Origin: Candidatus Iainarchaeum sp.
Lineage (GTDB): Archaea; Iainarchaeota; Iainarchaeia; Iainarchaeales; 0-14-0-20-30-16
Assembly: GCA_903916665.1 (NCBI GenBank)
Contig: CAIWXP010000074.1
Coordinates: forward strand, 1 to 11,456
Length of the DNA: 11,456 bases
Direction of reading: 5' to 3'
Part shown: one piece after another, positions 3,972 through 9,931 of the stretch
Layout of the letters: each line of letters starts with the position of its first letter
Position numbering within the stretch: the stretch's first letter is position 1
Notes under the pieces: generated by a model
The model's input: the letters and a program-made list of their open reading frames with translations, nothing else
The model's database searches: none
What the model was told of the DNA's origin: nothing
Program-made: the position numbers and the translations under genes

Positions 3972-4337
3972 ATGTTTCCTGGATTAGGTGGAATGAACCC
4001 TGCACAAATGCAAAAGATGATGTCACAGTTAGGTATTAAAACTGTTGAAGTACCTGTTGAGAAAGTTGTATTTTATATGAAAGATGGTACAGCAATGGAA
4101 ATGGCTTTGCCTCAAGTAACTAAGATGACCATACAAGGCACAGAAACCTATCAAGTAATAGGTAATGCTCAACCTTTACAATCTTTACCTAATAGCAAGC
4201 CTAAAGAGTTAGAAATAACTGAAGATGATGTTAAGTTAGTAATGCAACAAGCATCAGTATCAAAGGAACAAGCATCAAAGGCTTTGAAAGAAACTAAAGG
4301 CGACATTGCTGAAGCTATTATGTTATTAAAGAAGTGA
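3972..4337 (+). CDS. nac: nascent polypeptide-associated complex protein (archaeal NAC alpha homologue: NAC domain + C-terminal UBA)
   Basis: It has the archaeal NAC N-terminus 'MFPGLGGMNPAQMQKMMSQLGI' and a NAC beta-barrel segment (VEKVVFYMKDGTAMEMALPQVTKMTIQGTETYQVIG). The C-terminal UBA reads 'EDDVKLVMQQASVSKEQASKALKETKGDIAEAIMLL'. The SD GGTGAT (3961-3966) lies 5 nt before the ATG. Confidence 0.92.
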   Translation: MFPGLGGMNPAQMQKMMSQLGIKTVEVPVEKVVFYMKDGTAMEMALPQVTKMTIQGTETYQVIGNAQPLQSLPNSKPKELEITEDDVKLVMQQASVSKEQASKALKETKGDIAEAIMLLKK

Positions 4338-4341: not shown

Positions 4342-4848
4342 TTGAAAGTTACTTTACGTAAGTTCAAATTAAAAGATGTAAATAGTTTAGCAGAAAATAC
4401 AAATGAAAAATTAATTGCTAAAAATCTAATTGGAATTATTTTGCCATATACAAAGAAGGATTCTTTGTCTTGGATTAAAGAAGTAAAAAAAGAATATTTA
4501 AAATCAAAACCCAATAAACTCTATTTTGGTATTATTGTAAATGGTATAGCTGTTGGTGAAGTTGGTTTATATGATATTGATCATGAAAATAAACATGCAG
4601 AATTAGTTTATTGGATCGGCAAGAATTATAGAGGAAAAGGCATAGTAAAGAAAGCAGTAAAACAAATGCTAGACTATGGTTTTAAAAAGTTAAAATTAGT
4701 AAGAATATTTGCAACTATTTTTGTTTATAATAAACAATCAATTGATTTGTTAAAAAGTTTAAAATTTAAGTACGAGGGTAAACAACGCAAAGTAACTTTT
4801 AAAGATGGTAAATATTTAGATGAATATACCTATGCATTAATTAAATAG
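4342..4848 (+). CDS. GNAT family N-acetyltransferase, RimJ/RimL-like (Acetyltransf_3 type)
   Basis: The N-terminal 'VTLRKFKLKDV' is typical of RimJ/L-like enzymes. It also has 'AELVYWIGKNYRGKGIVKKAVKQMLDYGF' (the R-x-x-G-x-G acetyl-CoA motif) and 'LVRIFATIFVYNKQSIDLLKSLKFKYEG'. The start is TTG, since there is no in-frame ATG near the N-terminus, and it is supported by the upstream GTGAT. Confidence 0.85.
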   Translation: MKVTLRKFKLKDVNSLAENTNEKLIAKNLIGIILPYTKKDSLSWIKEVKKEYLKSKPNKLYFGIIVNGIAVGEVGLYDIDHENKHAELVYWIGKNYRGKGIVKKAVKQMLDYGFKKLKLVRIFATIFVYNKQSIDLLKSLKFKYEGKQRKVTFKDGKYLDEYTYALIK

Positions 4849-5012: not shown

Positions 5013-5444
5013 TTATTCCAAATAAATACTTTCAATTGCTTTATTAAATATTAAAATTAGAATATACATTTCATCTTCAGTTAATGATATTCCTATGCTG
5101 TTAAGAGTATTATCTTTTTCTTGTTGATTTATTTTAAATGAATAACCAAAATTACTTTTTGATATTTTTAATACTGCATTCTTAACTGTTGTTTCATTAA
5201 TAGATTTATTTGGATCATGGAATAATTGTAATTCTTCTTTTGGACCCTTAATAAATACACAAATCTTTGCAGCATCCTGTGCACTTAATTTAAAGATTTG
5301 TTTATTGCTCCAATCAAATGCTTTTTCTTCTTTTTGCTTCGCAAATTCTAGAAATATGCTCTTCTTTAATTTATTAAAATCGACGCTCATTGCAGAGCCA
5401 GATTTTGAAGAATTAGGTTTGTAAATAACATAATTATTTTGCAC
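5013..5444 (-). CDS. Whirly-like single-stranded DNA-binding protein (bare Whirly domain, 143 aa)
   Basis: Several motifs line up colinearly with plant Whirly proteins recalled from memory (potato p24/StWhy1, AtWHY). The pairs, ours vs plant, are IYK..GSAMSV vs IYKGKAALTV, FDWSNKQIFKLS vs YDWSRKQVFSLS, and LFHDPNKS vs FFHDPNKG. Two more are GYSFKI vs GHFFNL and ISLTEDEMYILILIFNKA vs IPVTKAEFAVLVSAFNFV. The GTG start (5444) is preceded by GGTGAT (5453..5448) plus AAT. Confidence that this is a real CDS is higher (~0.85) than confidence in the family call. Confidence 0.6.
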   Translation of the reverse strand: MQNNYVIYKPNSSKSGSAMSVDFNKLKKSIFLEFAKQKEEKAFDWSNKQIFKLSAQDAAKICVFIKGPKEELQLFHDPNKSINETTVKNAVLKISKSNFGYSFKINQQEKDNTLNSIGISLTEDEMYILILIFNKAIESIYLE

Positions 5445-5481
5445 ATTATCACCAATTAATCAACATATAAAATTTATCTGT

Positions 5482-5964
5482 TTAATGATCTAACATATGA
5501 TTCTTTTGTTTTAATTTTTTTACCATTTCTTCTGGTTTTTCGCTCATAATATTTGAATTCTCTAGAATGGTCATGAATCCAGTGTCACCTTTAAATCTAG
5601 GTACAACATGGAAATGAATATGATCTACTGAGCCACCGCCCATTTTAGTTTGATAACCCACATCAAAGCCATCGGGATGAAATGCTTCTCTTAAAAGTTT
5701 AATTGCTCTTTTTATTAATAGCATCATATCTTTATCTTCATCTTTATTTAGATCTACAATATCTGTAACGTGTCTTTTTGGTATTATCAATAAATGACCA
5801 TATAAATATGGATATTGATTTGCTAAAATTGTACAGGTGTTTCCTTCGTGAACAATATATTGAGATTTATTATGATAATTACAGAAAGGACATTTTGTAT
5901 CCTTGTTATGACTCTCAATATATTTTTCTCTTATTGGTGCATAAATTATTTTTGCGATAGACAT
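5482..5964 (-). CDS. HIT family (histidine triad) nucleotide hydrolase/transferase, Fhit-like branch
   Basis: The histidine triad reads 'HIHFHVVPRFKGD', preceded by 'YGHLLIIPKRHV' and an N-terminal 'CPFC' motif. An SD-like AGAGGA lies ~7 nt upstream of the ATG. Confidence 0.9.
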   Translation of the reverse strand: MSIAKIIYAPIREKYIESHNKDTKCPFCNYHNKSQYIVHEGNTCTILANQYPYLYGHLLIIPKRHVTDIVDLNKDEDKDMMLLIKRAIKLLREAFHPDGFDVGYQTKMGGGSVDHIHFHVVPRFKGDTGFMTILENSNIMSEKPEEMVKKLKQKNHMLDH

Positions 5965-6050: not shown

Positions 6051-6578
6051 TTAAAATTTCTCTCTTGATATTTTATAGTAACTTACATCTAATTCATTAT
6101 CAACAATAGCTAAAATTAAAGTAGTATGTAATCCTATTGACATTCTTGTGCTTTTTGCAATTTTTTGATTTGTTAATTTTTCGCTTTCTGGCAAAACTTC
6201 AATAACAAATTGTGTGTGTGCTTCATCTACTTTTTTACCCTTTGGATATACTCTAAAATCAAAACCAAATTTTAATCCAGTTTTCAAAATATATCCCTTA
6301 GATCTTAAATCTTTATATACTGCGAATTTATGAATTAAATATTTTTTAGAACTTTTACCTAAAATAGTTTTTGTAATTTGTTCTGCTGTGATTTTCTTTT
6401 TGTTATTGTAAATAGTTAATGATTCTTTTTCACATAAATATAATGCTTCATATAGATCTAAAACTAGTATTTTGTTTTGTAGTTTACCAAAGGATCTTTG
6501 GCATAGTAAAGCTTTAGAATCTTCATCTGTAATTATTACCTTGTCACCATCTAAATTTCCTATAAATTTTTTGGACAT
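6051..6578 (-). CDS. endA: tRNA-splicing endonuclease EndA (short, homotetramer-size class)
   Basis: It is colinear with M. jannaschii EndA (recalled from memory). Shared segments include 'KKFIGNLDGDKVII', 'YEALYL', 'VYKDLRSKGYILKTGLKFGFDFRVY' and '...H...LILAIVD...VSYYKI'. The ORF track starts at GTG 6590. I prefer ATG 6578 because GTGAT (6586..6582) plus GAT precedes it, the SD geometry used elsewhere in the window. Confidence 0.9.
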   Translation of the reverse strand: MSKKFIGNLDGDKVIITDEDSKALLCQRSFGKLQNKILVLDLYEALYLCEKESLTIYNNKKKITAEQITKTILGKSSKKYLIHKFAVYKDLRSKGYILKTGLKFGFDFRVYPKGKKVDEAHTQFVIEVLPESEKLTNQKIAKSTRMSIGLHTTLILAIVDNELDVSYYKISREKF

Positions 6579-6630
6579 ATCATCACTCACAAAATCATAA
6601 ATTCTAATACGATAAATTTGTAAACTATAG

Positions 6631-6675: not shown

Positions 6676-7728
6676 ATGATTGCTTGTCGAAGAATAACTG
6701 AATATCAAGTAGTAGATGCAAATGAAACACTTTCTAAGGTAATTCCTAAGCTAAAGAAGGATAAGCAAGTAGTTGTTTTTGACGGTGCCAAATATAGTGG
6801 TATTGTTACTAGAAAAAACATATTAAAGGAAGGGATAAATTTACCTGAAGAAAAGATTTCAAATATTGTTTTGAGACCACCAGCTGTTTATGATGAAACT
6901 TCTGAGTTAGATGTTGCAAAATATTTTATTGAAACGGGTGCACATTTTTTGCCAGTTTTAAACGATGAAGATAAAAATAAAATTGAATGTGCAATTTATA
7001 GAATTGATTTTATAAAAGATATTGTATTGCCAAGTATGAAAGGTACAAAGGTATCTGAGGTAACAACAGTAAATGTTAAAACGATTTATCCAACTGATAA
7101 TTTGACAAAAGCTTTGGATATTTTTCATGAATTTGGCATATCAAAATTAGTTGTTTATGATCAAGGAAAAATATATGGTGTTTTAACAATGTCAAATATT
7201 TTGGGGCAGTTTATGCATGATACTCAAATATCAAGTTCAAAATTACAGACAATTTTAGTTAAAGATATTATGAAAAACGAAGCCTATACCATTGAAAAAT
7301 CAGAAGACCTATACAAAGCAATTAATTTATTTTCTGAAAAGAATATATCTTCAGTTGTTGTTTTGGATAATGGGTTTCTGTATGGAATAGTTACAAAAAC
7401 AGATATTTTAGAACACTATGTTTATGCTTTGGAAAAAGAATTAAAGCAAAGTACTGTGCAAATATCAGCTAAATTTCCTGGAATAGATAGACAAGAAGTT
7501 GAAAATATATTTTCTCATTTAGATAGATTTGGAAAAGAGTATAAGGTATTTGTTTACTATAAAATGGGTAAAGAAAAGTTTAGAGGGCTGCCTTTAATAA
7601 ATTGTAGAGTTAGGTTAATTGAACCTAGACATACCTTTGGAGTATCCGTTGAAAGTTGGGGTGTTGAACACGCAACTGAGTTAGCAGTTAAGAAATTAAA
7701 AAGACAAATGGGTGATGTTAGCTTCTAG
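6676..7728 (+). CDS. four-CBS-domain (two Bateman modules) protein with a C-terminal HPF/RaiA-like (ribosomal S30AE-like) domain
   Basis: Four CBS repeats end in GIVTRKNILK, CAIYRIDFIK, YGVLTMSNILGQF and YGIVTKTDILEHY. Residues ~261-350 (7456..7725) read as beta-alpha-beta-beta-beta-alpha. They end in 'HATELAVKKLKRQM', which resembles the HPF/YfiA C-terminal helix '..AAIDGLIDKLARQL'. The CBS call is high confidence and the HPF-like call is moderate. Confidence 0.8.
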   Translation: MIACRRITEYQVVDANETLSKVIPKLKKDKQVVVFDGAKYSGIVTRKNILKEGINLPEEKISNIVLRPPAVYDETSELDVAKYFIETGAHFLPVLNDEDKNKIECAIYRIDFIKDIVLPSMKGTKVSEVTTVNVKTIYPTDNLTKALDIFHEFGISKLVVYDQGKIYGVLTMSNILGQFMHDTQISSSKLQTILVKDIMKNEAYTIEKSEDLYKAINLFSEKNISSVVVLDNGFLYGIVTKTDILEHYVYALEKELKQSTVQISAKFPGIDRQEVENIFSHLDRFGKEYKVFVYYKMGKEKFRGLPLINCRVRLIEPRHTFGVSVESWGVEHATELAVKKLKRQMGDVSF

Positions 7729-8462: not shown

Positions 8463-8485
8463 CTTTTCTTTAGCAAATGATTTTT

Positions 8486-9931
8486 ATGATAGTTGATTAT
8501 CCAAATGGTCCATGGAAAAAGTTATTCTCTGGTAACTATGATGAATATTCACTAAGTCTTTTTTTTAATGAAGAAGGATATATAATTACAGAAATATTAA
8601 ATAATGAAAAAACAAAAGCGGTTTTAACGATTTCACAAATAATTGGTGTTTTTGGCGATGCAGAAACATTTGTTGAAACTATCCCAAGAAATGCAATATT
8701 TTTACTAGAACATGGTACAAAATCAAATCAAAAATATATTTTACTTCAAGGAGATCAAGAGGTATTAAACTATGGTCAGAAAGATATCACTGATTTTGTA
8801 AATGACCAATTTAAAAAATTAAAGAAAGACTCAAAAAGCATTGTTAATATTGCAAGTTCCTACGAAATTAATTTAAAAGATTATTTAGAATTGCCAAATG
8901 ATATGAAAACAAATATATTTTCTAATCCCTTATCTTTATTTTCGTTTATTACTCAAAATAGAGGTCCAAAGTCATATACTTCTAATAAAATAGAACAGGA
9001 TAAGAAAGAATTCTTTTTAGGTTTTTATAAAACAACAAATGAAAAAGTAACAGAACCTTTAGAATTGTTTAATAAAACATTTGTTTTTGGCTCTGGTGAT
9101 AATTGTGTTAAAGTTTTATTAGAAAATTTTTCGCAAAATAAAACAAATATTGTTGTTTTTACCTATTCTGATAATATTTCAAATATGAAATACCCAAATG
9201 AAAGTTCAAAAGTTCAAGAAGAGAATAAAAGTGCATCAATGGGATTTCCCACAATAGATTATAAATTAGGAGAAAAAATTTGTGTTAATTTGCAAGATCT
9301 TCCTGAAGGATCATTCCAAGAATTAATTCAATTAAAAGATGTAGAAATTTCTGCAATAATTACAGATGTTTTAATTAATAAAAAAAGTACGACTTTAGAT
9401 AATTTAATAAAAGATATATCAGAATATCTTAGTGATAAATTTACTAATTATAATTTAAATTTAGCAACTCGTTTGATAAACATAGTAAAGCAAGAAACGC
9501 CAGGAATATTTTTGGGAGACTTTTCAGTTAGTGAGTTTTTTAAGAATTATGGAAATTTAGGAAATATAAATATTGTTTATATTGATAAAAATAATTTATT
9601 AGCATCTAGAACAATAATTTATAATACCTTAAAGAAAATAGTAGAATTTTCTGGAAAAGAACAAAAATTATTGGTAGTATTACCAAATTTACAGGATGTT
9701 TTGCCAAGAAAAAATGATGATATACTTTCAAAAGAGTTTTTGAAATTATTACAACAGGATAATTATAATTTTTATATTTTTACATCACAAAATGAAATAG
9801 ATTTGAAACCAGAATTGTTAAATCAATTTACTGCTAAATTATCTATTTTAGAAATAGAAGAAATAGGAATAACATTAAAAGATGCAAAACCATTTAGATT
9901 TATTTTAAGACCAACTTATTCGAAGGCGTAA
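8486..9931 (+). CDS. HerA/FtsK-superfamily (DUF87-like) ATPase homologue with degenerate catalytic motifs (predicted inactive)
   Basis: ORF 8477..9931. ATG 8486 is preferred on TATA geometry. The architecture follows HerA-like proteins. 'FFLGFYK...VTEPLELFNKTFVFGSGDNCVKVLLE' occupies the position of RH..I.G.TGSGKS. 'INIVYIDKNN...LLVVLPNLQDVLP' occupies the position of I.DLS...hhhh(D/E)EAH.h.P. 'YIFTSQNEIDLKPELLNQFTAKLSIL' occupies the position of L.lisQRPsel...vlsQcnt.i.lRL. The reference patterns are recalled from memory. Confidence 0.5.
   Translation: MIVDYPNGPWKKLFSGNYDEYSLSLFFNEEGYIITEILNNEKTKAVLTISQIIGVFGDAETFVETIPRNAIFLLEHGTKSNQKYILLQGDQEVLNYGQKDITDFVNDQFKKLKKDSKSIVNIASSYEINLKDYLELPNDMKTNIFSNPLSLFSFITQNRGPKSYTSNKIEQDKKEFFLGFYKTTNEKVTEPLELFNKTFVFGSGDNCVKVLLENFSQNKTNIVVFTYSDNISNMKYPNESSKVQEENKSASMGFPTIDYKLGEKICVNLQDLPEGSFQELIQLKDVEISAIITDVLINKKSTTLDNLIKDISEYLSDKFTNYNLNLATRLINIVKQETPGIFLGDFSVSEFFKNYGNLGNINIVYIDKNNLLASRTIIYNTLKKIVEFSGKEQKLLVVLPNLQDVLPRKNDDILSKEFLKLLQQDNYNFYIFTSQNEIDLKPELLNQFTAKLSILEIEEIGITLKDAKPFRFILRPTYSKA

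Follow-up and report, generated by a model that had tools for sequence, protein, structure and literature searches.

A Whirly gene in a DPANN archaeon

The DNA analysed here (hereafter the window) is an 11,456-nucleotide (nt) stretch, positions 1 to 11,456 of contig CAIWXP010000074.1 from an assembly of Candidatus Iainarchaeum sp. (GCA_903916665.1), and the gene under study encodes a 143-amino-acid (aa) protein that is a member of the Whirly domain family lying outside the plant WHY1/WHY2 subgroup (Table 1). The host is a low-GC (guanine plus cytosine) DPANN archaeon of a Diapherotrites/Iainarchaeota-like lineage; the nearest named relative, at 86% identity, is Ca. Diapherotrites archaeon CG08, and a scan of genome contigs found only three close loci. 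Purifying selection has maintained the gene in both Diapherotrites-like and Micrarchaeota genomes. Compared with eight relatives, its ratio of nonsynonymous to synonymous substitution rates (dN/dS) is 0.06–0.14 at dS 1.0–1.9, indicating a functional gene under strong purifying selection. The predicted isoelectric point of the product is 8.8.

Translation appears to begin at a GTG codon (5442-5444), which is credible because the N-terminus of close homologues (M-QNNYVIYK) begins at the same position. The GGTGAT-N3-GTG initiation site described in a first-pass annotation, a model's reading of the sequence alone, was found as described, and its Shine-Dalgarno-like motif would pair with the 3' end of 16S rRNA; elsewhere in the window, the NAC, CBS and SIMPL-like genes are likewise preceded by GGTGA/GGTGG-type motifs, at a distance of 3–8 nt. 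A TATA-box-like stretch, TTTTATAT, may perhaps be the gene's own promoter, a chance match being expected at 26% GC.

Table 1. Coordinates of the Whirly gene and its parts, of neighbouring genes, and of RecJ–Whirly gene pairs at other loci (L numbers)
Feature	Sequence	Position	Strand	Remarks
Whirly-domain protein gene	window	5013-5444	-	143 aa, GTG start, stop codon 5013-5015; open reading frame listing
Shine-Dalgarno-like GGTGAT	window	5448-5453	-	ATCACC on the + strand; 3-nt spacer to GTG; read from sequence
TATA-box-like stretch TTTTATAT	window	5465-5472	-	inside the 37-nt HIT–Whirly spacer; read from sequence
β1-β2 hairpin, residues 8-18 (YKPNSSKSGSA)	window	5391-5423	-	expanded counterpart of plant KGKAAL; hhalign
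FDWSNK, residues 43-48	window	5301-5318	-	most conserved family block, plant YDWSRK; 1L3A and 4KOO alignments
FHDPNK, residues 75-80	window	5205-5222	-	strand β5 and next turn; identical in potato p24
C-terminal helix α2, residues 123-142	window	5019-5078	-	DSSP; ends IESIYLE, without the family's terminal G-W
HIT-family nucleotide hydrolase/transferase	window	5482-5964	-	directly upstream of Whirly; Pfam HIT 3.8e-17; context
tRNA-splicing endonuclease EndA	window	6051-6590	-	first gene of EndA-HIT-Whirly; tRNA_int_endo 1.2e-23, tRNA_int_endo_N 6.4e-16
NAC	window	3972-4337		Pfam
GNAT acetyltransferase	window	4342-4848	+	between NAC and Whirly
Four-CBS-domain protein	window	6676-7728	+	window neighbour
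Conserved 484-aa protein	window	8477-9931	+	no Pfam, NCBIfam or PADLOC match
RecJ–Whirly pair	L008/L009	4461-6501		
RecJ–Whirly pair	L027	9611-11702		
RecJ–Whirly pair	L013	1229-3275		
RecJ–Whirly pair	L044	3501-5304		
RecJ–Whirly pair	L039	441-2320		
RecJ–Whirly pair	L059	2705-4361		
RecJ–Whirly pairs	L015, L041, L016, L032, L040			
RecJ–Whirly pair	L019			extra open reading frame between the two genes

Family membership and predicted fold

The sole Pfam match of the protein is PF08536 (Whirly), at E = 1e-13 and 51.8 bits (gathering score 23 bits), covering residues 29–129 and profile positions 32–133 of 136. When all PDB sequences were searched with phmmer, only plant Whirly proteins were matched, namely AtWHY1 (4KOO, E = 3.3e-11), p24 (1L3A, 9.1e-11) and AtWHY3 (4KOQ, 1.8e-10), followed by StWhy2/AtWHY2 at ~1e-4 to 3e-5 (StWhy2 3N1H, 2.7e-5). 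A 40-sequence family profile matched all six plant Whirly structure sequences at E 1e-11 to 1e-12, and hhalign against an algal/KGKAAL-type profile gave a probability of 99.4% (E = 4.9e-22) over 133 columns. The DNA pattern encoding [FY]DWxNK, 27 aa and HDP occurs once in the window and in none of 200 shuffles.

An AlphaFold2 model based on 12 homologues (mean predicted local distance difference test score, pLDDT, 87.5; predicted template-modelling score, pTM, 0.82) has the topology β4-α-β4-α, that is, two four-stranded sheets and two helices. According to DSSP, the first half of the model comprises strands 2–9, 17–24, 29–37 and 49–53 with a helix at 55–66, and the second half strands 71–76, 87–97, 100–109 and 114–121 with a helix at 123–142. 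The best 16 Foldseek matches in the PDB were all plant Whirly (template-modelling (TM) score 0.73–0.79, E = 1e-8 to 5e-7), headed by AtWHY1 (4koo; TM 0.79, E = 1e-8); trypanosome MRP1/2 (TM 0.71) and then Pur-alpha (TM 0.3–0.45) came after them.

Its sequence together with its predicted fold shows the archaeal protein to be homologous to plant Whirly. This bears out the family assignment of the first-pass annotation, which had named the lack of a profile match and a fold without two four-stranded sheets plus a helix as grounds against it: PF08536 is matched above its gathering score, the matches to 1L3A and 4KOO are significant, and the modelled sheets and helices find their best counterparts in plant Whirly. 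Identity to plant WHY1/WHY3/p24 (4KOO, 4KOQ, 1L3A) and WHY2 (3N1H, 4KOP) is 28–33% over ~110 residues within the same Pfam family, and the elements FDWxxKQ, FHDPNK, G(Y/H)xF and helix α2 follow one another in the same order. The two differ in genomic setting, as plant Whirly is a nuclear gene for an organelle protein whereas the window gene is chromosomal in an archaeon.

Membership of the PUR, PC4 or MRP families was considered and rejected, because Pfam returns PF08536 only and the structural scores are lower than those to Whirly. MRP1/MRP2 (2GID/2GJE) and Pur-alpha (3K44) do have a β4-α repeat architecture and single-stranded nucleic acid binding in common with Whirly, but they belong to other Pfam families and are ~10% identical to the window protein, with no detectable sequence similarity. 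MRP1/2 also form a whirligig tetramer (PMC7549692). A defence-system sensor of the sPC4/Whirly fold, as in Shedu type 1A and Menshen NsnA, was likewise rejected, given a stand-alone protein of 143 aa with no PADLOC match and housekeeping neighbours; the papers on those two systems describe the likeness to Whirly at the level of the fold only.

Conserved blocks and departures from plant Whirly

Four of the five block pairs that the first-pass annotation had drawn with potato p24, each given here as archaeal / plant, were reproduced exactly in the HMMER alignment to PDB 1L3A/4KOO: FDWSNKQIFKLS / YDWSRKQVFSLS, LFHDPNKS / FFHDPNKG, GYSFKINQQ / GHFFNLSVQ and ISLTEDEMYILILIFNKA / IPVTKAEFAVLVSAFNFV. 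The N-terminal pair, IYK..GSAMSV / IYKGKAALTV, lies outside the HMMER and Pfam alignments, which start at residues 25–29, and was recovered by profile–profile alignment with a five-residue archaeal insertion. In this hhalign alignment YK-P-[NSSKS]-G16-S17-A18-M19 is paired with plant/algal YK-[S/G/K]-KAA(V/L), so that of the KGKAAL hallmark only Y, K and one A are retained, the second Lys aligns to Gly and NSSKS is inserted. Within the clade, Y8, K9, N11, K14, G16 and A18 of the hairpin are invariant. In plants the KGKAAL motif is reported to be important for single-stranded DNA (ssDNA) binding, its second Lys being required if 24-mers are to assemble cooperatively on long DNA (PMC3245945).

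In the FDWSNK block F43, D44, W45 and K48 are invariant, and H76, within FHDPNK, is the sole residue invariant across 40 diverse members of the family. Helix α2, which forms the tetramer core in plant Whirly, ends in Gly-Trp in plants (LLGW; FNFV(M/L)PYL(L/I)GW), Micrarchaeota (IYGW) and phage homologues, but the whole Diapherotrites-type clade lacks these residues and ends in IYLE or IYSD (5019-5027 in the window), a loss that may bear on oligomerisation. Neither a transit peptide nor a C-terminal extension is present: the domain runs from residue 2 to 1–2 residues past α2, whereas plant Whirly chains run ~20 residues past the aligned region. Plants and algae also have ~15 additional residues between β2 and β3 that are absent from the archaeal protein.

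Distribution and phylogeny of the family

Word-indexed protein searches reached close relatives only. Searched exhaustively with a profile, a set of 1.84 billion cluster representatives without taxon names yielded 387 clusters at E ≤ 1e-3, 50 of them at E ≤ 1e-10; stand-alone proteins of 140–175 aa make up the majority. The [FY]DWxNK-27aa-HDP DNA pattern retrieved 48 loci from JGI metagenomes, of which three are false positives, and nothing from IMG/VR. The metagenome loci fall into a low-GC Diapherotrites-like group, a Micrarchaeota-like group with some members on contigs of 313 kb and 375 kb, a high-GC marine green-algal group and a subfamily marked by the motif YKGxxGKxGA.

The named relatives nearest to the window's clade belong to Ca. 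Micrarchaeota and Ca. Norongarragalinales. The closest of them outside Diapherotrites, P0026 (Ca. Norongarragalinales) and P0173 (Ca. Micrarchaeota), match the clade profile at E = 1e-25 to 1e-37, and Micrarchaeota Whirly proteins are ~41% identical to the window protein, similar in size and likewise from DPANN hosts. They keep the C-terminal IYGW and are usually paired with a RecJ-family gene, whereas the window's clade has the order EndA-HIT-Whirly. Some Micrarchaeota Whirly proteins (P0033, P0172, P0173, P0028; loci L015, L018, L027, L041) carry, ahead of the domain, a low-complexity, Q/P/T/S-rich N-terminal extension of 50–240 residues, which is missing from the window protein. Green-alga-type Whirly genes on high-GC (57–72%) marine contigs (L014, L023, L024, L031, L033, L046) encode very long Q/G-rich N-terminal regions with a FAVYKSKAAVKF… motif and served as full-length eukaryotic comparators.

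The YKGxxGKxGA subfamily and other distant members are located in phage genomes. Whirly genes lie inside phage fragments at L028 (2116-2679) and L004 (8001-8447), both of which encode a phage AAA ATPase, phrog_8638 (E = 1e-124 and 1e-134, respectively). On L028, genes for a head maturation protease and a ribonucleotide reductase of phage type are present too. A viral structure library holds an entry, A0A6J5NR37, named 'Whirly transcription factor [uncultured Caudovirales phage]'. These phage proteins belong to the same family by profile and fold (TM 0.60–0.68) and are also stand-alone, at ~140–200 aa; they differ from DPANN members in sequence (26–31% identity), in their YKGxxGKxGA-type N-terminal motifs and in the placement of their genes in phage replication/morphogenesis arrays. 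A Cys-rich, zinc-ribbon-like insert (CxxC … C…C) occupies the β2-β3 loop of phage-type P0127, P0148, P0161 and P0164 and of locus L055, at the site of the extra 15 residues of plants. Neither the window protein nor its phage-type homologues had a match in PHROGs, in GenBank phages (tblastn) or in PADLOC.

In a neighbour-joining tree of 71 taxa, bootstrap values are 98 for the Diapherotrites clade, 89 for the eukaryotic clade and no more than 38–51 for the DPANN grouping, and the nodes joining eukaryotes to any prokaryotic or phage clade have 12–59. The suggestion of a prokaryotic relative of plant Whirly was right. A position of the archaeal gene near the ancestor of the plant family, also suggested, is speculative, as the Diapherotrites and eukaryotic clades are separate and the nodes between them poorly supported. 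The accompanying view of Whirly as a plant and algal family was too narrow, as phage and archaeal members are present in public databases and the exact 143-aa protein already carries a precomputed PF08536 assignment in a protein collection.

The family assignment is obtainable by any standard domain annotation, and no new mechanism is shown here. NCBI labels a close relative as hypothetical protein, and NCBIfam has no model for the Whirly protein. Plant biologists, reviews included, commonly call Whirly plant-specific (for example PMC9070903 and PMC11712025); a study from 2024 drew its Whirly outgroup from bacterial and archaeal sequences, and one from 2026 places Whirly/Pur-alpha proteins in all three domains. 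Our literature search found Whirly never mentioned alongside DPANN, Micrarchaeota, Diapherotrites or Iainarchaeota; databases flag this protein, but no study of a Whirly from a prokaryote is known. What emerges is that two phyla of ultrasmall DPANN archaea have clear sequence-level homologues of Whirly as housekeeping genes that are conserved and passed on vertically; uncultured phages have homologues as well. Archaeal and phage Whirlies offer outgroups for tracing the origin of the plant family, and the minimal 143-residue domain suits structural and biochemical work.

Gene neighbourhood and the RecJ-family partner

In the window, EndA, HIT and Whirly are co-directional with spacers of 86 and 37 nt, an order kept in the related loci L001, L003 and L012, and the longer series CoA-ligase / 484 aa / coiled-coil / CBS / EndA / HIT / Whirly / NAC is kept in related assemblies. 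Pfam confirms HIT, EndA and NAC, in agreement with the earlier placement of the gene among archaeal housekeeping genes. The GC content is 24–29% throughout, without a compositional break. The Whirly gene belongs to the archaeal chromosome and is not a contaminant or provirus, because GC is uniform, the neighbours are housekeeping genes and synteny extends across assemblies.

A different association recurs in Micrarchaeota. Among about 21 Micrarchaeota-type loci with enough upstream sequence, 12 have a DHH/DHHA1 gene of the RecJ family immediately upstream of Whirly and co-directional with it (Table 1). The pair spans at least eight lineages, between which the RecJ-like proteins are 27–55% identical, and in L027 the two open reading frames overlap by 8 nt. 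The best NCBIfam matches of the DHH/DHHA1 protein are HAN, RecJ_archaeal and GAN, all below their equivalog cutoffs. Elsewhere the gene order is DHH, HhH-GPD glycosylase, Whirly (L053), and FEN1 lies near Whirly in L010. Enzymes of the RecJ family are exonucleases of ssDNA with ties to replication and repair. Since they act on ssDNA, the pairing supports a role for Whirly in ssDNA handling, and it constitutes a testable functional lead.

Proposed function and rival explanations

Homology and the RecJ-family neighbour in Micrarchaeota lead us to infer that archaeal Whirly binds single-stranded nucleic acid. We consider it moderately probable that this minimal, cellular DPANN Whirly is an oligomeric single-strand binder that guards ssDNA alongside a RecJ-family nuclease. 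Its two helices would mediate assembly into a whirligig-shaped oligomer, probably a tetramer as in plant WHY1/WHY2, and single-stranded nucleic acid would be bound with little sequence preference along the edges of the β-sheet blades and between them. Plant Whirly is known to bind ssDNA as tetramers (PMC3245945). In such a scheme, ssDNA exposed in replication or repair would be protected and illegitimate annealing limited, in cooperation with a RecJ-family 5'-3' ssDNA nuclease. Whirly would be an accessory single-strand binder and need not be the only single-stranded DNA-binding protein (SSB) of the cell. An archaeal OB-fold SSB or RPA presumably does the same job, coating ssDNA in replication and repair, but its fold is unrelated and no sequence or structural match to it was found. 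For Ca. Micrarchaeum ARMAN-2, an SSB of the OB-fold type and a lack of RPA have been reported (PMC3914693); Whirly is therefore not evidently an SSB replacement, and a role as sole SSB is not supported.

Several observations weigh against this reading. No RecJ-like gene lies within 6 kb of Whirly in the window, L001–L003 or L012, the pairing being one of the sister phylum, and the conserved neighbours in the window's own clade, EndA and HIT, point to RNA as much as to DNA. Because plant Whirlies are RNA binders as well and have a part in transcription, the substrate does not follow from homology alone. Within the protein, KGKAAL is only partly retained, and this clade has lost the C-terminal Trp that almost all members of the family share. 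The main rival is accordingly an RNA-related role, because EndA and HIT are conserved neighbours and RecJ pairing is absent from the clade: the protein would be an RNA-binding protein or chaperone in tRNA or RNA processing, co-expressed with EndA and HIT and comparable to MRP1/MRP2 or to WHY1 in intron splicing. The tight co-directional arrangement conserved in the window, L001, L003 and L012 fits such co-expression, MRP1/2 are the next-best structural match after plant Whirly, and plant WHY1 binds RNA and has been linked to intron splicing (PMC3245945). However, EndA-HIT-Whirly is confined to the close Diapherotrites clade, with the more distant relatives L058 and L006 and all Micrarchaeota loci having other neighbours, and the gene found repeatedly beside Whirly elsewhere encodes a DNA nuclease of the RecJ family. 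The possible TATA-like element and the gene's own Shine-Dalgarno motif in the spacer would moreover permit independent expression, and a tRNA scan found no tRNA gene in the window. On balance we regard an RNA role as unlikely.

Less likely again is an abundant architectural, nucleoid-associated protein or transcription regulator that compacts or coats a small chromosome in the manner of plastid WHY1 or PBF-2. Plant WHY1, originally identified as an activator of transcription, does compact nucleoids (PMC9070903, PMC3245945), and a small, basic protein encoded by an apparently single, conserved gene in two DPANN phyla would suit that task; yet the Lys required for cooperative 24-mer assembly of the plant protein is the one paired with Gly in the alignment, and no recurring association with transcription genes was found, TFIIB lying 2.4 kb away in one lineage only (L008, L009). 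That the gene is foreign to the archaeon, whether viral or proviral or an algal or plant contaminant of the metagenome bin, is very improbable. Homologues do exist in uncultured tailed phages, beside the phrog_8638 ATPase, head maturation protease and ribonucleotide reductase genes of L004 and L028, and in marine green algae (L014, L023, L024 and others), but the window shows no compositional break, EndA and NAC flank the gene in synteny conserved across several independent assemblies, the Diapherotrites clade is distinct in the bootstrap analysis, and the window protein has no PHROG match and no counterpart in GenBank phages or IMG/VR.

The proposal of an ssDNA-guarding Whirly may be extended to a broader and more doubtful scenario, in which Whirly proteins would be old non-OB-fold single-strand binders of prokaryotes and phages. 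The DPANN copy would then be a dedicated ssDNA partner of a RecJ/Cdc45-like nuclease at forks or repair intermediates, and the organelle Whirlies of plants and algae would descend from a prokaryotic or phage gene gained by the green-plant ancestor, like other phage-type organelle replication proteins.

Other genes of the window

Besides the genes in Table 1, the window encodes a coiled-coil protein and an ACD-like CoA ligase. The GNAT gene that separates NAC from Whirly occurs on this contig only: NAC adjoins Whirly directly in L001, and the intervening open reading frame encodes 68 aa in L012 and 329 aa in L003. The HIT protein has its best NCBIfam match, below cutoff, to ATP adenylyltransferase of the Ap4A-phosphorylase type (4.5e-29) rather than to Hint, and it also resembles the PADLOC HIT component ThsC. 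The gene for the 484-aa protein always adjoins that for the ACD-like CoA ligase in this lineage; it is present in L012 and L003, and L045 has an orthologue with 31% identity. The C-terminal ~75 residues of the four-CBS protein show a weak likeness to the S30AE family of ribosome hibernation factors (E = 0.0025; 18.9 bits, below the cutoff of 23.7).

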